Below, piece by piece: positions 2-6,754 of a DNA stretch of 24,000 bases. A program made the position numbers and the translations under genes. The notes below the pieces were generated by a model. That model saw only the letters and a list, made by a program, of their open reading frames with translations. It searched no databases and had not been told where the DNA came from. The stretch is from Kineosporia sp. NBRC 101731. Its GTDB lineage: Bacteria; Actinomycetota; Actinomycetes; Actinomycetales; Kineosporiaceae. The stretch is taken from NCBI RefSeq assembly GCF_030269305.1, contig NZ_BSTC01000004.1, positions 227,963-251,962 on the forward strand, in the 5' to 3' direction. How positions within the stretch are numbered: the first letter of the stretch is position 1; every line of letters begins with the position of its first letter.

Positions 2-655
2 GGTGGATCCGATCCGGAGACCGTCGACGAGGTGAAGGTGCGGGGGCCCCTGACACTGCGCACGGGCCGGCGGGCGGTCACCGCCGCCGACTTCGAGCAA
101 CTGAGTCTGGAGAGCAGCCCCCGGCTGGCCCGAGCGCGCTGTGCGGTGCCCGAGACCGACGGTGGGCCCGTGCGGCTGCTGCTGGTGCCCCGCCGGCCAC
201 CGGCCCCGGGCCTGCGGAACGTGGACGAGTTCGCTCTCGAGGAAGAGCTTCTGGAGGAAGTCACCGCCGGTCTGGAACCGCGCCGGCTGGTCGGCTCACG
301 CATCGAGCTGACCACCCCGTACTACATCGGGGTCGCCGTGGAGGTGTCGGTGCGGGCCGCCACCGGTCACAGCGCGGCCGCGGTGCGTCAGACGGCCGAG
401 GAGACGCTGCGCACCTGGCTGGACCCGCTGCACGGGGGTGCCGACCGCAGCGGCTGGCCCTTCGACCGACATCTCACCGGGTCCGCCGTCGTGCACCGGC
501 TGGAAGGGCTGGCCGGTGTCGCGAACATCGAGGACGTGCGCCTGTACGAGTACGACCTGCGCCGGGGGGAACGGGTCGGCCCGGTCCGGGACGTCCTGAC
601 GCTGGACGCCGACAGCCTGTTCCTGCCGGGTGAGCTGATGGTGGTGGCCCGATGA
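2..655 (+). CDS. Baseplate J/gp47-like baseplate wedge protein of a contractile injection system (Afp11/Cis11-like). Only the C-terminal part is present; the 5' end lies outside the window.
   Basis: The frame is open from nt 2 (GGSDPETVDEVKVRGPLTLRTGRRAVTAADFEQL...). The '...RAVTxxDFExL' block and the following beta-rich C-terminus are typical of baseplate J family C-termini. The GTG at 32 in the track is probably internal. The stop overlaps the next gene's start as ATGA (652-655). Third-position GC bias is strong. Confidence 0.8.
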   Translation, partial: GGSDPETVDEVKVRGPLTLRTGRRAVTAADFEQLSLESSPRLARARCAVPETDGGPVRLLLVPRRPPAPGLRNVDEFALEEELLEEVTAGLEPRRLVGSRIELTTPYYIGVAVEVSVRAATGHSAAAVRQTAEETLRTWLDPLHGGADRSGWPFDRHLTGSAVVHRLEGLAGVANIEDVRLYEYDLRRGERVGPVRDVLTLDADSLFLPGELMVVAR

Positions 656-1659
656 GTGCGCCGGCCCCCGGCTGGCTCGCCCGGCAACTGCCGGTCGTCA
701 TGCAGCAGGACGACTTCACGGTGCGCTTCCTCGCGATCTTCGAGGACCTGGCGGACACCCTGCTGCACTCGGTGGGTTCGGTGGCCGAGGCGGCCGATCC
801 CACCGTCGCGCCCGCCCCGATGGTGCCCTGGCTCGGGAGCTGGATCGCCGGCCCCGTCGATCCCGCCGCCGGCACCCACCCGCTGCGCGACCGGGACTGG
901 CTGCGAGCGCAGTCCCGGGCGCTGGGGGCCCGGGGCACCCGGGCCGGTCTGGAGCAGTGGCTGTCCCTGCTGTCCGGCGGGCGCCCGGTCGAGATCATCG
1001 ACGGCGGTGGCGTCTACCGCGAGGGTCAGGCCCCGGAGGGAGCGACCGGCTGGGTCCAGGTCCGGATGCCACTGGCCGGCGATGTGGATGCGCAGCAGGT
1101 CGTCGCCCTGATCGAGGACGAGGTGCCCATCGGCGTGAGGGTCGAGCTCCTGGTGATTCCGGACGAGCCCTCCGGGGTGCCCCGGCCCCGGGACGCTCAG
1201 GACGATGCCGATCACACCGATCACACCGCTGACGCCGATCTCCGGGAGCCGATGCCGGGCGGCCCGTACTTCTGGGACGGCGGGGACGAGGACGTCTTTC
1301 CGCCCCTGTGGGAGGAAGCGATCCCGGCCCCGGAAGTCACGGAGAACACGCAGGAGGCCCCGCTGTCCGGTGCGCTGCGCCGGCTTCCGGGAACGGGCGG
1401 ACGGGCCGTGCGCGCCGGGCGCTTGTGCCCGGAGTGCGCCGAGCCCAACGCCTTCGGATCACTCACGTGCCTCCGATGTGCATCGGTGTTGCGGGTTCCC
1501 CGTCCGGTGGCGGAGCCGGTTCCGGAGCCCGAACCGGAGCCCTTGTGGGACGACGAGGACTGGCTGCCACAGCGGCGGACCCGGCCCGTCGTCGTCGCGA
1601 CGGCCGGGCTGCTCCTGCTTTTGAGCCTCATCCTGTTCCTCACGTACCTCCTGCGCTGA
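652..1659 (+). CDS. P2 gpI-like baseplate/tail protein (Afp12/Cis12-like), residues ~1-170. It carries a C-terminal extension: an acidic/Pro-rich linker, a CxxC-x13-CxxC zinc ribbon (nt 1426-1479) and a C-terminal TM helix (nt ~1588-1653).
   Basis: The N-terminus WLARQLPVVMQQDDFTVRFLAIFEDLADTLL matches the usual start of tail-protein-I family members. ATGA coupling to the baseplate J gene gives the canonical J-I order. The extension contains CPECAEPNAFGSLTCLRCASVL, then PEPEPEP, then RRTRPVVVATAGLLLLLSLILFLTYLLR at the very C-terminus. Confidence 0.7.
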   Translation: MSAPAPGWLARQLPVVMQQDDFTVRFLAIFEDLADTLLHSVGSVAEAADPTVAPAPMVPWLGSWIAGPVDPAAGTHPLRDRDWLRAQSRALGARGTRAGLEQWLSLLSGGRPVEIIDGGGVYREGQAPEGATGWVQVRMPLAGDVDAQQVVALIEDEVPIGVRVELLVIPDEPSGVPRPRDAQDDADHTDHTADADLREPMPGGPYFWDGGDEDVFPPLWEEAIPAPEVTENTQEAPLSGALRRLPGTGGRAVRAGRLCPECAEPNAFGSLTCLRCASVLRVPRPVAEPVPEPEPEPLWDDEDWLPQRRTRPVVVATAGLLLLLSLILFLTYLLR

Positions 1660-2518
1660 GCCTCACCGGCGCCAGGGTGGTCCTGGCGCTCGTCACCGTC
1701 TCCACCATCACGCAGGCACCGCTGTAGCCGCGGCTGCGGAAGTAGATCGCGTATATGCCGGGCGGCAGATCCGCGCTCCAGTCGTGGCCGCTGATCGTGA
1801 CCGGGTACGTGGTCCGGCCCGTGCGGGCGCTCGCGCCGCTGAGGTTCTCGCGCGAGAGACCACGCACGAACGCCGTGATCGGTGAGGAGGCACCGCCGTC
1901 CAGGAACACCGTGCCCTGGACCCGTACGGGGCCCGGGGCGCGACGCATGCGGGCCACATTGGCATCCCGGTCGGCGGTGTCGACGATGGCCGCCAGGGTG
2001 CGCGCCCGCGGTCCGGCCGACGCGGCCGTGAACACTTTCACCCCCGCCACGACCATCAGCAGCAGCGCGACCAGCAACACGGCGATCACGGCGACCACCC
2101 GAGGACGCCGCGTTGCCGGTCGCGCAGAACCGCTCGGGGGTTGTGGTCGGTCGGTGAACGGCGGGCGGCGAACCGTCAGCTGGGAATCGGCGACCGGCAC
2201 CGGAGCACCCGAGGTCTGCGCGGTCAGGGTCCAGAGGTACCGGCCGGGCAACGTTCCGGCCGGAGGGGTCAGGTAGACGAAGACCTCAGCCGTGTTGTGA
2301 CCCGGCAACTGCAGGACCTGGGCCGGCGGGCACCAGGACGACGGCAGGCCCCGGGCGAGCAGAACAGCCCGCACCTCCTCGCCCGTCAGGTTCTGGACGG
2401 TTCCACGCACGACCACCGTCTGGCCGGCGTCGACCGTCCCTTCCTGAGCCGTCACCCTCAGCGTGGCGCGGTCACCTGACCAGGACGCTGCCTGCCGGTC
2501 TGTTGTGGGGCTGCTCAT
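1640..2518 (-). CDS. Bitopic membrane protein, paralog 3: N-terminal Ig-like (CARDB/NEW3-like) domain, one TM helix, C-terminal carboxypeptidase-regulatory-like beta-sandwich.
   Basis: I place the start at the internal ATG at 2518 (MSSPTTDRQ...), not at track position 2614. A GGAAGGAG Shine-Dalgarno lies just upstream. This ATG overlaps the upstream gene's stop as ATGA (2515-2518). The TM is RRPRVVAVIAVLLVALLLMVVAGV. The C-terminal 'VRVQGTVFLDG...LPPGIYAIYFRSRGY' is a CarboxypepD_reg-like pattern. Confidence 0.7.
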   Translation of the reverse strand: MSSPTTDRQAASWSGDRATLRVTAQEGTVDAGQTVVVRGTVQNLTGEEVRAVLLARGLPSSWCPPAQVLQLPGHNTAEVFVYLTPPAGTLPGRYLWTLTAQTSGAPVPVADSQLTVRRPPFTDRPQPPSGSARPATRRPRVVAVIAVLLVALLLMVVAGVKVFTAASAGPRARTLAAIVDTADRDANVARMRRAPGPVRVQGTVFLDGGASSPITAFVRGLSRENLSGASARTGRTTYPVTISGHDWSADLPPGIYAIYFRSRGYSGACVMVETVTSARTTLAPVRLSAGGT

Positions 2519-4401
2519 GAAACTCCTTCCGACGACGTTTCGGTGGGTGTGGCCGGTGGGGCGGTCGTCGCCGACGGCCGGACGCAGATGAAGACGTCGT
2601 GCCACCAGGAGCACCCGGCCGGGCCCGACACGCCGTCCTCCCCCGGGGGACCGCTGGGACCCGGCGGACCGGAAGGCCCTACGGCGCCGTCCGTTCCGTC
2701 AGCACCGTCGCTGCCGTTCGTCCCGTCGGTGCCGTCACTCCCGCCGGTGCCGGCCGTGCCGTCGGTGCCGTTCGTTCCGTCCGTGCCGTCCGTTCCGTTC
2801 GTGCCGTCGATGCCGTTGGTTCCGTCCCGGCCGTTCGTACCGTCCGCACCCGGGTCGCCCGTCGTCCCCGCACCACCCCGGTCACCGCGAGGGCCGGGTT
2901 CTCCGGTCGCACCCGGCGGAAGCCGCAGTCCGCTCGCGGGATCCGGGGCCAGTCGTAAGGTCACGTCGGCGGGCACCCCCGGCTCCAGCGTCACGGTGGC
3001 CTGAGCCGGGCGGTATCCCTCCTTGGCGGCGACCACCGTGTAGCGGGCCGGGGCAAGCACGTCCTTCGCCACGAATACCGCGGTACCCGGCAGTTGCTCC
3101 GCCTGCCTCACCCCCGCTCCCGGAGCCGCGGTTCCCTCACCCAGCTGAAGATTCACCTCGGCACCCGCCGGGATGTCCATGTCGAGGGTCACGACGACCG
3201 TTCCCAGCGCCAGTCCCGGCACCATCGGATTCAGCGACGTGCCTTCACCACCGGTCGCGGTGACCGGTGCCGCATCCTCCGGGTCGGTCGCCTGGGGGTA
3301 CCAGATCGGATGCGGACCCGTGCCTTCGAGCCGGATCAGGTACTCCCCGGACGGAACCTCCATCTGCCAGGTGCCGTCCGCACCGAAATCCTTGGTGCTG
3401 ACCACCGGGACGGCGGTGTCATCGAGCCGGTACGCGGAGACGACCGCACCGGTGGGCAGTCCCCGGCCCCGACGTCCGCCGCTGCTCACCGGCGCCGCAC
3501 GTCCGGACCGGACCGACTCGGGCTCCGGCTGCACCGTTCCCTTCAGGAAGCAGGGGCAGTCGGCCGAACCGTCCGCCGCTCCCCCGACGTGCGGATCGCT
3601 GACCTCGTCCAGTTGATCGGCGGTATTGGCCTGTTCCACGTCGTGCTGGGTGAAGATCGCGCCCACGGTGACGGCGGCCACGCCGAGCACCAGCGCCAGG
3701 ACCACCAGACTCGCCCCCAGCGACAACGCGGCCCGGCTGATCCGCGGTTTCTGCAGGAAAGCTCCCTGGGCCAGCGGCCCCTCGACAGGAACCCCGATCC
3801 GGCGTTCCTGATCCGTGCGCGCATCCGCATACACCGAGAACATCCGGGGCGCCGGCATACCCGTCCAGGGCCGGCGCCGCCGGACCGTCACGTCGATGCG
3901 GGTCTGCTCCCCCGGCGCCAGGTCCAGCCGCTCCGAGCTGAAATCGAAGGTGAGCCGGGCCTCGTCGTCCACTCCCACCAGAGGGCTGCCCACGGTCGTG
4001 TTGCCGGCGTTCTCGGCCCTCAGCCGGAAACCGGCACGACGGCCTCCGGACACCAGCGGCGGCCTGACCGTCAGCAGCAGGCGCTCCCGGGCGGGCACGT
4101 GCACCTCGACCGGCTGCAGCCAGCATTCCTGGCGGCCACCGACCTCCTGGACCTGCACCGTCAGGGGATGGGAGCCGGCGGGAAACGTCTCCGGCAGGAG
4201 CACCCGCACCGTCAGCTCGCGCGATTCACCGGGAAAGAGCTCGAACTCAGGAACGCCGACCTCGACCCAGTCCGGGTCGGCCCCCAGAATGCGCACCGAG
4301 AACGCGGAAATGGTGTCCCGGACGTTCTGCACCCGCAGGGTCATCTCACCCGGCGAGCCGGCCCGGTGCACGATCTGCCCGGGTGAGAACTCGGTGATCA
4401 T
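2515..4401 (-). CDS. Bitopic membrane protein, paralog 2: two Ig-like N-terminal domains, a TM helix, two carboxypeptidase-regulatory-like domains and a C-terminal collagen-like triple-helix repeat.
   Basis: This is a 628-aa ORF with strong GC3 bias. The start ATG at 4401 overlaps the upstream stop (ATGA, 4398-4401). The TM is KPRISRAALSLGASLVVLALVLGVAAVTVGAIF, followed by an acidic segment, which implies N-in/C-out. 'LKGTV...GEYLIRLEGTG' and 'ARYTVVAAKEGYRPAQATVTLEPG' are beta-sandwich motifs. There are 32 uninterrupted G-X-Y triplets near the C-terminus. Confidence 0.8.
   Translation of the reverse strand: MITEFSPGQIVHRAGSPGEMTLRVQNVRDTISAFSVRILGADPDWVEVGVPEFELFPGESRELTVRVLLPETFPAGSHPLTVQVQEVGGRQECWLQPVEVHVPARERLLLTVRPPLVSGGRRAGFRLRAENAGNTTVGSPLVGVDDEARLTFDFSSERLDLAPGEQTRIDVTVRRRRPWTGMPAPRMFSVYADARTDQERRIGVPVEGPLAQGAFLQKPRISRAALSLGASLVVLALVLGVAAVTVGAIFTQHDVEQANTADQLDEVSDPHVGGAADGSADCPCFLKGTVQPEPESVRSGRAAPVSSGGRRGRGLPTGAVVSAYRLDDTAVPVVSTKDFGADGTWQMEVPSGEYLIRLEGTGPHPIWYPQATDPEDAAPVTATGGEGTSLNPMVPGLALGTVVVTLDMDIPAGAEVNLQLGEGTAAPGAGVRQAEQLPGTAVFVAKDVLAPARYTVVAAKEGYRPAQATVTLEPGVPADVTLRLAPDPASGLRLPPGATGEPGPRGDRGGAGTTGDPGADGTNGRDGTNGIDGTNGTDGTDGTNGTDGTAGTGGSDGTDGTNGSDGADGTDGAVGPSGPPGPSGPPGEDGVSGPAGCSWWHDVFICVRPSATTAPPATPTETSSEGVS
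2617..2904 (-). repeat. Collagen-like G-X-Y coding repeat (32 triplets, mostly GTD/GTN/GSD/GPP) inside the 2515..4401 CDS.
   Basis: The translation reads GEPGPRGDRGGAGTTGDPGADGTNGRDGTNGIDGTNGTDGTDGTNGTDGTAGTGGSDGTDGTNGSDGADGTDGAVGPSGPPGPSGPPGEDGVSGPAG. At the DNA level this appears as degenerate 9/18-bp repeats (ccgtc/ggtgccgtt...). Confidence 0.9.
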
Positions 4402-6119
4402 CCGGGATCACCTGCACAGGTCGCCGAACTCGCCGAGAACGGCACGGAATAGAAGTTCGCCCGCGCCGGGAGCACATGCAGACGACAGGCGTGCATCGCC
4501 TGCCCGCCCACGGTCATCGTGAGGTCGTAGTAGCCGGGTGCCAGCAGCCCCGTCAGACGGATCTGGCTCTCCCACCCGCCGCCGGCGGCGGGCCGGGACG
4601 GAAACTCCCCCGGCCCGGAGCCGCCCGCCGGGTCGCCGGGTCCGGCGCCTTGTGTGCCTTCCTCCCCCTTACCCGTCGGCGTCCTGGCCGGCAGCCAGAC
4701 CGGGCCGGCCGGCCGGGCCGGATCGGACCGGGCACCCTCGAACGCACCCGTCCCCGCACCGGCAGAACGACCGGCGGAAGAACCGGACAGCGCTGTCGCA
4801 GAGGGTTTCCGGGCCGAGGAAGGGATCGGCCCGCAGGCCGGGACCGGTGTCGGGGCCACCGTGACACCCGGGGACCTCCCGGCCTCCGGGGTTCCCCCGG
4901 TATCGACGTCCGCCGAGGGCTGCTTCGGCGCCGACAGCCGGGCGGTGACGTGCACGGCCGGCGTGGCGGATCCGTCCGGGTTCCGCAGCCTCACCGTCAG
5001 CTGAGCCGGACGCCCCGGCAGCCGCCCCCGGACCCGGCAGGACTCCTGGTCCACGGCGGCCCGCAGCCTCGCATTCCCGTTCCAAGGCGGTGCGAGAACG
5101 ATCTCGTAGCGGGCGGGAAAGGTGTCCGGCAGCCAGAACCGGCCCTGGCTGTCACTGGCGGTCCGGTAGGTCGTGGTGGCCTCGGTACAGCGCGACCGCG
5201 GCCGCACCGCAGGGTCCTGGCTGCACGCCAGCACCTTCACCCCGGACACCGGCGAACCGTCCACCTCCGAGACGACCAGTCCGGACAGTGTGAGCGCCAC
5301 ATCCAGAACGTCACGAGGCCCCGGACCCGTCCGGAACCCGTCGGGTACCGCGACCGGCGGTGCCTCCGGGCGGACGAAGGCACGCAGCCCGAGATATCCC
5401 AGGGTGCCCCAGATCGCCAGCACCAGAACGAGGACCACCGCGAACACCAGCCCGTGACCCAGCACGGGCCGCTGACGGAAGGTGACCCGCACGTCCTGGT
5501 GCAGCTCCTCGTCCAGCATCGGGTGCCCGGGCGTGACCGACGCGGCCACGACGCGTACATCGGCCAGGTGCTCACGGACAGCGCCGAGCAGACGCCAGGG
5601 GGCGGTGACCTCCACCCGGCAGACCTTCGTCTGCCACGGTTCGATCATGGCCTCGTCCGGCTCGAACGTCATGGAGACCCCGTCGGGGAGGTCGACCTCG
5701 CGGGGATGAACCAGCAGAGCGGTGTTCCCGCGGTTGGCGACCGTCATCGGGAAGGACACGCGACGGGTGCCCATGCGTACGCAGGGGCGGACACCGGCCG
5801 TCAGCGCGGGACGCGCGGCCACGTCGACCTGCAGGCCGGCCTGATGCTCCCTCTCGGTCGCGGTCGCCCGCACCACCACATCGACGCGGTGCCGGCCGGC
5901 CGGTACCTGGGCCGGCAGTTGCACCTGCAGCGGTAACCGCCGCCGCTCACCGGGAAACAGCGTGGGGGTGCTCTCCAGGCGCACCGTGGCCCCGGAGAGA
6001 CCGGTCAGGTCGATCTCGACCGCGTCGATCACATCGTCGGTGTTGACGACGTCGATCAGCACCTCCCCCGGAACCTCCGGTTCCAGGCTGACCTCGTCGT
6101 TGACCAGCCGGACCTCCAT
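4398..6119 (-). CDS. Bitopic membrane protein, paralog 1: two Ig-like N-terminal domains, a TM helix, a carboxypeptidase-regulatory-like domain, a long low-complexity linker and a C-terminal beta-sandwich.
   Basis: I place the start at the internal ATG at 6119 (MEVRLVNDEVSLEPE...), residue 201 of the 773-aa track ORF. The upstream 200 codons are an Arg/Gly-rich shadow of the DUF4255 gene, which is in another frame. The start overlaps the DUF4255 stop by 1 nt (TGATG). The N-terminal domains align by eye with paralog 2 (V.N..D.I.A...LFPGE.R.L...V.LP...PAG.H). The TM is VLGHGLVFAVVLVLVLAIWGTLGYLGL. Confidence 0.75.
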   Translation of the reverse strand: MEVRLVNDEVSLEPEVPGEVLIDVVNTDDVIDAVEIDLTGLSGATVRLESTPTLFPGERRRLPLQVQLPAQVPAGRHRVDVVVRATATEREHQAGLQVDVAARPALTAGVRPCVRMGTRRVSFPMTVANRGNTALLVHPREVDLPDGVSMTFEPDEAMIEPWQTKVCRVEVTAPWRLLGAVREHLADVRVVAASVTPGHPMLDEELHQDVRVTFRQRPVLGHGLVFAVVLVLVLAIWGTLGYLGLRAFVRPEAPPVAVPDGFRTGPGPRDVLDVALTLSGLVVSEVDGSPVSGVKVLACSQDPAVRPRSRCTEATTTYRTASDSQGRFWLPDTFPARYEIVLAPPWNGNARLRAAVDQESCRVRGRLPGRPAQLTVRLRNPDGSATPAVHVTARLSAPKQPSADVDTGGTPEAGRSPGVTVAPTPVPACGPIPSSARKPSATALSGSSAGRSAGAGTGAFEGARSDPARPAGPVWLPARTPTGKGEEGTQGAGPGDPAGGSGPGEFPSRPAAGGGWESQIRLTGLLAPGYYDLTMTVGGQAMHACRLHVLPARANFYSVPFSASSATCAGDPG

Positions 6120-6754
6120 CAGGCCCCGTCGCGCTGCCGTTGCCGCGAGGCCCCGAACCAGCCGGGGCGACGCCCGGTGTCCGTCGCGCTGCCCGACCGG
6201 CGCAGCGGCGCCACGGTGGTCTCCACCCGCCGGACCGGCGCCGCGACGCGCTGCGGGCGGTCCAGGGTAACGGCGGTCGTGGCGACGAGAACCAGAGAGG
6301 GGCGCAGCTTTCCCCCCAGACCACCCCAAAGATCCCGGCCTCTGACCTGTTCCGGATCCGCCAGGGCGATGTTCACCTTGCCCGTGATCTCCCCGCCCTC
6401 CGTGTCCCCGTCCAGCACCGGTGTCCGCAGCAGACCTCGCACGGCATCCCCCAGGAGCCGGTGCTCCTCCCGCACCCCGCCACCCCAGGCACTCAGGAGG
6501 TACGAGAACGAGACCACGGGCGCCGGCCGGTCCCGCACGACCACCCCGTTGGTGTCGCGGTACGGACCGGTCACCGCGGGTTGCACTGCCGCCCGGGCAA
6601 TGTCGAAAAGAAAAAGGTTCAGTGTCGGCCGCGTGAGAGACGTACCCCAGGTGCCGTCCGGGCTCTCGAACGAGACGTCCCCGTCCTCCTCGGGCAGCGG
6701 CACCTCTTCTTGCAACCACGACTTCAGCGTGCTTTCCAGCGCGGACAGCGGCAC
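6119..6754 (-). CDS. DUF4255 / Pvc16-N-like protein (Afp16/Cis16-type tail terminator/cap of contractile injection systems).
   Basis: This is a 211-aa ORF. It has a GTG start with a GGGGAGGA Shine-Dalgarno 4 nt upstream. MPLSALESTLKSWLQEE...PTLNLFLFDIARA...SFSYLLSAWG fits the DUF4255 pattern as I remember it. It sits next to other CIS genes. Confidence 0.7.
   Translation of the reverse strand: MPLSALESTLKSWLQEEVPLPEEDGDVSFESPDGTWGTSLTRPTLNLFLFDIARAAVQPAVTGPYRDTNGVVVRDRPAPVVSFSYLLSAWGGGVREEHRLLGDAVRGLLRTPVLDGDTEGGEITGKVNIALADPEQVRGRDLWGGLGGKLRPSLVLVATTAVTLDRPQRVAAPVRRVETTVAPLRRSGSATDTGRRPGWFGASRQRQRDGA

Follow-up and report, generated by a model that had tools for sequence, protein, structure and literature searches.

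The window analysed here, a 24,000-nt stretch of Kineosporia sp. NBRC 101731 DNA (contig NZ_BSTC01000004.1) to whose positions all coordinates refer, carries part of a contractile injection system (CIS) cluster of the Streptomyces type. One gene of this cluster (2515–4401, minus strand) codes for P0001, the 'paralog 2' of an initial annotation, a predicted bitopic membrane protein of 628 amino acids (aa) with 33 uninterrupted collagen-like G-X-Y triplets close to its C-terminus. The presence of the collagen-like segment is confirmed. The explanation that we favour, to which we assign a probability of about 0.5, is that P0001 is an accessory membrane protein of the CIS, with the N-terminus inside and the C-terminus outside (N-in/C-out), that its triplets form a trimerising stalk of fixed length (about 28 nm) and that the protein acts as a membrane tether. 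The interpretation proposed in the initial annotation is partly supported.

The segment covers aa 497–596 (2614–2913, minus strand), that is, 33 triplets (aa 497–595) and a closing glycine, G596. The initial annotation had counted 32 triplets at 2617–2904; the run is uninterrupted as described, but that range extends from GEP to GPA and omits the first triplet, GAT. The order of elements that it gave agrees with the sequence: a core of GTD, GTN, GSD and GAD triplets is followed by a Pro-rich run and by a 32-residue tail containing Cys and Trp. A short start containing Pro and Arg leads into about 18 triplets of the G-T-D/G-T-N type; then come seven Pro-rich triplets (aa 575–596; 2614–2679, minus strand; GPS GPP GPS GPP GED GVS GPA G) and, directly after the closing glycine, the tail, which opens with C-S-W-W-H-D-V-F-I-C. 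The X position is occupied by Thr in 13 triplets and by Pro in six, the Y position by Asp in 12, Asn in five and Pro in four. This G-T-D/G-T-N composition is unusual among bacterial collagen-like sequences.

The Pfam Collagen model (PF01391) matches the segment with 52.6 bits against a cut-off of 27.2 (E = 3.8e-14), and the segment aligns over its full length with solved collagen chains, a likeness of periodicity and not of homology. Since Gly makes up only 10% of the remainder of P0001, the probability of 33 in-phase glycines is about 1e-33, and a chance origin is excluded. The run is the longest found in a six-frame scan of the whole 8.26-Mb genome, in which the next one has 23 triplets and all others have 15 at most. 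This second-longest run lies on contig C25 of the genome (G000), from about nt 644 on the plus strand, and consists of a 6-aa repeat (G-T-G-G-Q-N) close to the beginning of an open frame of 6131 codons. Calcium-binding nonapeptide repeats of the RTX type were also considered for the P0001 segment and rejected, as there was no Pfam match and the GGxGxDxUx pattern, with its hydrophobic position, is missing. An R-G-D (aa 502–504; 2890–2898, within G-P-R-G-D-R) in the third and fourth triplets is probably a coincidence in a soil actinomycete.

The degenerate 9/18-bp DNA repeats mentioned in the initial annotation are real, and the periodicity, with 68–76% matches, extends to 27 and 36 bp; repeat units match each other at 60–76% of positions and the longest exact repeat in the segment is 14 nt. 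Repeats are prone to mis-assembly, so the segment might be an assembly artefact, or might not be translated in this frame. Both possibilities are largely refuted. Collapse or expansion during assembly is unlikely because the periodicity is degenerate and the exact repeats, at most 14 nt long, are much shorter than a read or a k-mer. The gene is located on a 604-kb contig, and its ATGA overlap with the gene that follows is intact. Positions 2783–2933, which include part of the repeat, are matched with one mismatch by a 151-nt contig of a freshwater-sediment metagenome. The translated frame is fixed by a conserved hairpin motif past the repeat (described below), which is kept in frame with the upstream domains in three orthologues, and the gene has a coding-like distribution of GC content over the three codon positions (0.74/0.57/0.83).

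The glycines of the 33 triplets are encoded by all four Gly codons (GGC 14, GGT 9, GGA 5 and GGG 5), with none of the 66 first and second positions changed. As the DNA units are at the same time only 60–76% alike, this codon usage fits old repeats that have been held in the G-X-Y register by selection. The initial annotation also suggested that the repeats could allow length variation by slippage or recombination. The main significance of the segment might then be genetic, as a contingency tract in which 9/18/27-bp repeats often change in copy number and stalk length consequently varies within populations. The tandem periodicity is in favour of such a tract, as is the number of triplets, which does differ between species (10, 12, 13 and 33). 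Frequent slippage is nevertheless unlikely given the degeneracy of the repeats and the limit of 14 nt on exact ones, and one orthologue is represented by an identical protein in two metagenome samples. In addition, the spacer to which the triplets belong is held at 106–111 aa in total among orthologues, which argues for selection against changes of length. Slippage-driven length variation is thus weakly supported, and a contingency tract seems improbable to us.

The remainder of P0001 was examined in an AlphaFold2 (AF2) model built on a 50-sequence alignment, with a mean predicted local distance difference test score (pLDDT) of 79. The N-terminal part (aa 1–215; 3757–4401, minus strand) is modelled as two immunoglobulin (Ig)-like beta-sandwiches, residues 1–105 and 106–195, with a pLDDT of about 97; the corresponding Pfam matches, to NPCBM_assoc/FixG_C-like domains of the COG1470 type, are weak. 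A single transmembrane (TM) helix is placed by hydropathy and flank charges at aa 224–250 (3652–3732, minus strand), where the model has a long helix (223–266), and represents the only hydrophobic segment of the protein. It is preceded on its N side by KPRISR, which supplies K/R charges, and followed on its C side by five D/E within 15 residues. Because these charges obey the positive-inside rule, the orientation of P0001 is predicted to be N-in/C-out; moreover, no signal peptide was found, and a folded N-terminal domain of 220 residues without a signal is not plausibly translocated, so that the N-terminus is probably cytoplasmic. The extracytoplasmic globular part (aa 284–485; 2947–3552, minus strand) comprises two further beta-sandwiches, 284–395 and 398–485, which are CarboxypepD_reg-like and PEGA-like according to Pfam, the AF2 model and Atlas neighbours. 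A fold search of the Protein Data Bank with the whole model returned only generic tandem-Ig matches (ciliary ASH-domain proteins, PapD-like chaperones and macroglobulins) and no functional lead.

Pfam, the single TM helix, the predicted N-in orientation and the CIS cluster all agree with the initial placing of the collagen-like part at the extracytoplasmic, C-terminal end of a CIS-linked membrane protein. The fibre-like module had also been described as joined through the TM helix to cytoplasmic Ig domains; the order Ig, TM, collagen holds, but about 245 residues, including the two outer beta-sandwiches, separate the TM helix from the segment. Past the segment, P0001 ends with the motif C-x-W-W-x-D-x-x-x-C-V-R-P (aa 597–609; 2575–2613, minus strand), conserved in all four module-bearing orthologues and modelled as a two-strand hairpin (597–606; strands 597–600 and 603–606) bracketed by C597 and C606, and with a Thr/Pro/Ala/Ser-rich tail (aa 610–628; 2518–2574, minus strand). 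At the other end of the ectodomain, a C-P-C (aa 282–284; 3550–3558), located about 30 residues past the TM helix, is invariant in six of six close orthologues, including those without the module, but the family at large does not conserve it. At this site, the base of the ectodomain, the motif could make a disulfide, either between chains or vicinal.

Modelling of a trimer, one of the checks suggested in the initial annotation, gave a result consistent with a triple helix. In the three-copy fold model, residues 494–593 of all chains zip into one continuous interface with a score of 0.38, compared with 0.00 for the best control, although this should be taken as a likeness more than as proof, since models of this kind are apt to turn any G-X-Y sequence into a triple helix. 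In the benchmark of this score, 21 of 30 solved one-chain pairs attained the same mark, but none of 23 single chains did. Both ends of the segment are Pro-rich, the C-terminal one most. According to the C-to-N zipper model, collagen folding nucleates at the C-terminal end (PMC11923368), which makes aa 575–596, adjoining the first Cys of the tail, a candidate nucleation clamp. This residue, C597, stands immediately after the last Gly of the segment. Junctional Cys knots are found in collagen III and in FACIT collagens.

Several observations weigh against a triple helix, above all the acidic, Pro-poor character of the middle of the segment. Pro is found at only 10 of the 66 X and Y positions, nearly all of them at the two ends; the segment has no Lys, its three Arg are confined to the N-terminal third, and each chain carries a net charge of about −12. 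Nearly all of the middle 18 triplets are of the G-T-D or G-T-N kind, and Pro is almost absent from them. Bacterial triple helices are stabilised by Pro at X, by Lys-Asp/Glu salt bridges and by glycosylated Thr (PMC11923368); as the middle of the segment is Pro-poor and Lys-free, these stabilisers are in P0001 either restricted to the ends or not identifiable. Thr-rich collagen peptides can require glycosylation for folding, and (Gly-Pro-Thr)10 is a random coil unless glycosylated (PMC11923368). In addition, the hairpin, which would be the candidate for an adjoining trimerisation or registration domain, has a pLDDT of only about 51–55 and lies outside the confident trimer interface of the three-copy model. 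A search of the genome for a protein O-mannosyltransferase (GT-C/PMT-like) was discarded as unspecific, since the matches obtained were accompanied by matches in E. coli and other control genomes.

These properties could be those of a flexible, acidic and possibly O-glycosylated spacer without a triple helix, which would keep membrane and hairpin a defined distance apart, while the oligomeric state of the protein would be determined elsewhere. The G-X-Y periodicity would then be one low-complexity solution among several, comparable to the Thr/Pro linker found in orthologues. The Pro-poor central triplets without Lys salt bridges, the negative charge and the behaviour of (Gly-Pro-Thr)10 all speak for such a spacer, as does the fact that orthologues keep its length and not its composition. 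The segment is also unstructured in the AF2 monomer (pLDDT <40), a result equally expected of a true collagen chain modelled alone. However, a mere spacer has no need of 33 in-phase glycines maintained across degenerate repeats with four Gly codons, nor of an uninterrupted G-X-Y block at the same site in all four carriers, and the Pro-rich ends and the trimer model, which passes its controls, are further arguments against it. We regard this alternative as unlikely, while giving it real weight. Another arrangement would be a bundle of polyproline-II/polyglycine-II helices made by one chain, giving a compact knob instead of a long trimeric stalk. Bundles of this kind are known from the snow-flea antifreeze protein and, in T-even phages, from the glycine-rich domain of gp38 adhesins, and a Gly at every third position is compatible with them where X and Y are small or polar (Thr, Asp, Asn, Ser, Ala). 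The segment has, however, one Gly per triplet (about 36% Gly) and none of the regular turn-forming interruptions in its 33 triplets; such a fold is not seen in the poorly ordered monomer model, in the trimer model the interface between chains runs along the whole segment, and a constant spacer length is better suited to an extended element. A bundle therefore appears highly improbable. Formation of a triple helix by the P0001 segment is, on balance, somewhat more probable than not.

Comparison of orthologues indicates what has been conserved in this region. Four carriers of the module are known: P0001, its orthologue in a congener (G005) and two metagenome orthologues (P0003 and P0004). The other three carriers have 13, 12 and 10 triplets, all starting, as in P0001, right after a conserved D-P-x-S-G-L-R, and the block is uninterrupted in all four, with the Gly columns kept and X and Y variable. 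In the three other carriers a Thr/Pro/Ser/Val linker of 66–77 residues is located between the triplets and the same hairpin. The spacer from G-L-R to the first hairpin Cys nevertheless measures 106, 106, 111 and 108 residues across the four carriers, and all four spacers are acidic, with net charges of −8 to −12. Those of P0001 and G005 are both exactly 318 nt long, with only 24 nt alignable by blastn, inside the shared G-X-Y core. The possibility that the collagen frame arose as a frameshift of the Thr/Pro linker of an orthologue was rejected, as none of the six frames of the two 318-nt spacers interconverts. Taken as a triple helix at 0.286 nm per residue, the 99 residues of the P0001 stalk would measure about 28 nm; with an extended linker, taken at about 0.31 nm per residue, the mixed spacers of the orthologues would reach about 31–33 nm. 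In general terms, and not with respect to the wall of this organism, some 28–33 nm is of the order of Gram-positive wall thickness.

We read these data as selection on spacer length, with expansion of an ancestral short collagen block that replaced the linker in this species. Judged by the sequences, the collagen-like segment appears to be a clade-specific way of building a fixed-length spacer. The same comparison weighs against a central role of the triple helix. As orthologues fill two-thirds of the spacer with a Thr/Pro/Val linker, the conserved property is the length of the spacer and not collagen as such; and since several Kineosporia orthologues lack the whole module, collagen is dispensable for the core function of the family.

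The module is also rare. Within the genus, G005 has it, three other orthologues stop soon after the second sandwich and no close orthologue was retrieved with this query in two genomes. When 5.8 billion proteins were searched with the hairpin region, the two metagenome orthologues, P0003 and P0004, were the only other records retrieved, and the motif is unique in its own genome. A true collagen-like block is present in only one cluster among the best 150 cluster representatives of the family. The linkers of P0003, P0004 and P0272 (L008:1501-3336, minus strand) end, just before the hairpin, in 15–25 residues of alternating Thr and Val (similar to V-V-T-T-V-V-T-S), which look strand-forming rather than disordered and might represent a trimeric beta element. 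Two orthologues without the module, L009 (G003) and L011 (G006), end in L-C-[IL]-P, which can be aligned with the end of the hairpin, [IL]-C-V-R-P; the module may have been lost by deletion rather than gained.

In the explanation that we favour, the 33 triplets would zip three chains of P0001, a single-pass N-in/C-out accessory protein of the Kineosporia CIS, into a collagen-type triple helix of about 28 nm on the outer face of the membrane. Folding would start at the Pro-rich last seven triplets, beside the two-cysteine hairpin, and interchain or hairpin disulfides may lock the triple helix. The predicted trimer would bring three pairs of cytoplasmic Ig-like domains together under the membrane and thus create a multivalent docking site for the CIS. 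On the outside, we infer that the stiff, acidic stalk of fixed length would carry the aromatic hairpin and the Thr/Pro tail across the peptidoglycan or deep into it, where the tip might fix the tether to the wall or signal damage to the envelope. A bolder proposal can be derived from this: P0001 would be the first bacterial 'type II transmembrane collagen', a trimeric ruler of about 28–33 nm across the Gram-positive wall, whose hairpin couples the surface or the wall to the cytoplasmic CIS baseplate, wall damage or stretch outside triggering firing inside. We consider this proposal quite unlikely, but if it is true, such an outside-in trigger would be the step missing from current models of Streptomyces-type CIS.

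A candidate docking partner on the cytoplasmic side is the baseplate wedge protein of the gpI-like type encoded by a neighbouring gene. Three chains, the tail terminator, the gpI-like protein and residues 1–218 of P0001, were modelled together. In the model the first Ig domain of P0001 (37–44, 73–81 and 95–97) lies on residues 97–136 of the gpI-like protein with a score of 0.38 against 0.00 for the best control, a result graded as weak support, since without prior likelihood of the contact most passes of this kind are wrong. The contacted surface includes an L-G-A-D-P-x-W patch that is invariant in close orthologues, with G40, D42 and W45 nearly invariant in the 50-sequence family alignment. 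The tail terminator was not contacted by the Ig domain in the three-chain model, which is weak evidence against the terminator as docking partner. These data fit docking to the baseplate rather than to the cap and provide a lead.

The protein without its C-terminal module belongs to a large family. Residues 1–495 of P0001, compared with 1.8 billion cluster representatives, have 1570 relatives at E ≤ 1e-3, of which 51 reach E ≤ 1e-30. Most of these are 800–900 aa long with several CarboxypepD_reg repeats, and named members are annotated as COG1470 or as carboxypeptidase regulatory-like, in agreement with the Atlas neighbours. A member of the family adjoins the Pvc16_N tail-terminator gene in three of five further genomes (G037, G014 and G021), which represent three genera, one of them from another family of the order; in G002 the distance between the two genes is 11 kb, and in the fragmented assembly G023 they are on separate contigs. 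The number of relatives and the recurrent linkage to Pvc16_N indicate that P0001 belongs to a widespread actinobacterial family of CIS-accessory membrane proteins, one that, by domain content, is not CisA. The family member P0268 has the same Ig-Ig-TM scaffold with PKD, PEGA and CBM96 outer modules (Pfam); PG_binding_1, ricin-type lectin and ChW outer domains are found only among the neighbours listed by the Atlas and are no more than leads. These modules hint that outer parts in the family generally handle wall glycans and that its members are modular CIS tethers in contact with the wall or its glycans.

CisA (SCO4242) is the only known adaptor of this kind. It is an N-in/C-out CIS membrane protein whose orientation was determined by experiment and which is needed for firing of the cytoplasmic CIS of Streptomyces coelicolor; 45 of 120 surveyed actinomycete CIS loci have no CisA match (PMC12237407). 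Like CisA, P0001 is encoded in an actinobacterial CIS cluster of the Streptomyces type and is, by prediction, a single-pass protein with a cytoplasmic N-terminus and a C-terminal domain outside; in both cases oligomerisation is predicted through the outer part and docking to the baseplate is proposed for the cytoplasmic part. In its published description, CisA is largely unstructured on the cytoplasmic side, its outer domain resembles solute-binding proteins, and a pentamer is predicted (PMC12237407). P0001 differs from this description: its cytoplasmic part consists of two folded Ig-like domains, its outer part of two beta-sandwiches, the collagen-like stalk and the hairpin, and it is a predicted trimer. 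Its gene is also placed differently, behind the terminator gene on the opposite strand, whereas the CisA gene follows the baseplate genes.

The picture of a trimeric 'inside-out tail fibre' spanning the membrane, drawn in the initial annotation, is a fair working picture, but it is an analogy only, and a trimeric fibre-like CIS anchor embedded in a membrane has a precedent in Cis13 of the thylakoid-anchored CIS of Anabaena (PMC8894136). Cis13 is, as P0001 would be, a trimeric fibre-like component, whose chains cross a membrane of the producer cell and hold the baseplate to it. It differs in trimerising through an alpha-helical bundle, in having no collagen-like part and in being a recognisable tail-fibre homologue; in P0001, the trimerising element would lie across the membrane from the machine. 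Collagen-like shafts are present in tail fibres of extracellular contractile injection systems (eCIS) of the eBAP3 group (PMC12923769). These and phage tail fibres have in common with P0001 a collagen-like shaft, triple-helical by prediction in P0001, that is linked to a contractile-tail machine and has a small distal element at the end. They are, however, soluble, attached directly to the baseplate and aimed at a target cell. In P0001 a TM helix is interposed between the part presumed to bind the baseplate and the shaft, the N-terminal fold is only generically Ig/PapD-like, and the distal element consists of nothing more than the 10-residue aromatic hairpin and the Thr/Pro tail.

Outside the CIS field, Bucl8 of Burkholderia has an outer collagen-like extension, triple-helical by circular dichroism, and a C-terminal tail (PMC7682875). 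It resembles P0001 in being a membrane protein of a larger envelope machine with an extended outer collagen-like domain and a short non-collagenous C-terminus, but its repeats are of the (GAS)n type, it works as an efflux channel in a Gram-negative outer membrane, and it is unrelated to P0001 in sequence, membrane topology and machine. The animal type II transmembrane collagens (MACITs: collagens XIII, XXIII and XXV; PMC4678570) have their parts in the same order, with the N-terminus in the cytoplasm and the collagenous ectodomain behind a single TM helix; their triple helices are interrupted and their cytosolic tails short, and the likeness is one of architecture only, with no evolutionary link. 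A literature search combining 'collagen-like' and 'contractile injection' did not retrieve a description of such a protein. Bacterial collagen-like proteins and CIS membrane adaptors, the kinds to which P0001 belongs, are already known; none of the systems compared here unites all of these features, and the layout of P0001 appears to be new for bacteria.

The way in which cytoplasmic CIS of the Streptomyces type locate the membrane and commit to firing is still an open question. The locus described here offers a different and widespread family of candidate adaptors, of which a small Kineosporia clade has a version with a collagen-like rod of defined length and a tiny conserved tip. Trimerisation of the adaptor, the distance between membrane and tip and the location of the tip in the wall become directly testable. 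The G-T-D/G-T-N segment should in addition be useful for asking which sequences form triple helices without hydroxyproline. If the segment is a floppy linker, the finding shrinks to a clade-specific decoration.

The neighbourhood of the P0001 gene supports its assignment to a CIS. The window has a G+C content of 69–75%, and the closest named relatives of its proteins are Kineosporia proteins. Two congeners retrieved by genome search share their C-terminal tails with the K. babensis and K. succinea records, which places the organism in Kineosporia; nothing points to a Streptomyces. P0001 is encoded by the second of three translationally coupled membrane-protein genes behind a tail-terminator gene, with stop and start codons overlapping throughout this four-gene operon (ATGA at 4398–4401 and 2515–2518 for the P0001 gene). 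The operon is headed by the Pvc16_N (DUF4255) gene (6119–6754, minus strand; PF14065, E = 7e-28), followed by the genes for paralog 1 (4398–6119, minus strand), P0001 and paralog 3 (1640–2518, minus strand). By Pfam and translation, paralog 1 has 573 aa with two Ig-like domains, a TM helix and a CarboxypepD_reg-like ectodomain, and paralog 3 has 292 aa with one NPCBM_assoc-like Ig domain, a TM helix and a small ectodomain. Paralog 1 shares 30% identity with P0001 over the Ig region (E = 2e-11); paralog 3 shares its layout only, as BLASTP gave no alignment between the two. Neither paralog has G-X-Y repeats. Convergent with the operon are the 3' end of a Baseplate_J gene (2–655, plus strand; PF04865) and, directly after it, in the position of Cis12, the gene for the gpI-like baseplate wedge protein (652–1659, plus strand). 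On the other side of the operon are a DUF5648 gene and the gene for the CIS AAA+ ATPase of the Afp15/Cis15 type (7668–9704, minus strand; PF00004 and PF22977), while a sheath gene and two tube genes of the gp19 type are located upstream of the window in the genome. The same gene order is found in the congener G005 and on the 13-kb metagenome contig that carries P0004.

Two minor observations concern the surroundings of the operon. The gene at 9779–10684 (minus strand), directly upstream of the CIS ATPase gene, has a weak OTT_1508-like deaminase match (25.5 bits, just below the cut-off of 27) and could encode an effector of the CIS. Within the paralog 3 gene, 2300–2474 agrees, apart from three mismatches, with a 178-nt contig of a metatranscriptomic library that bears the label 'mosquito metagenome'; this contig may represent RNA or carried-over DNA of a close relative.

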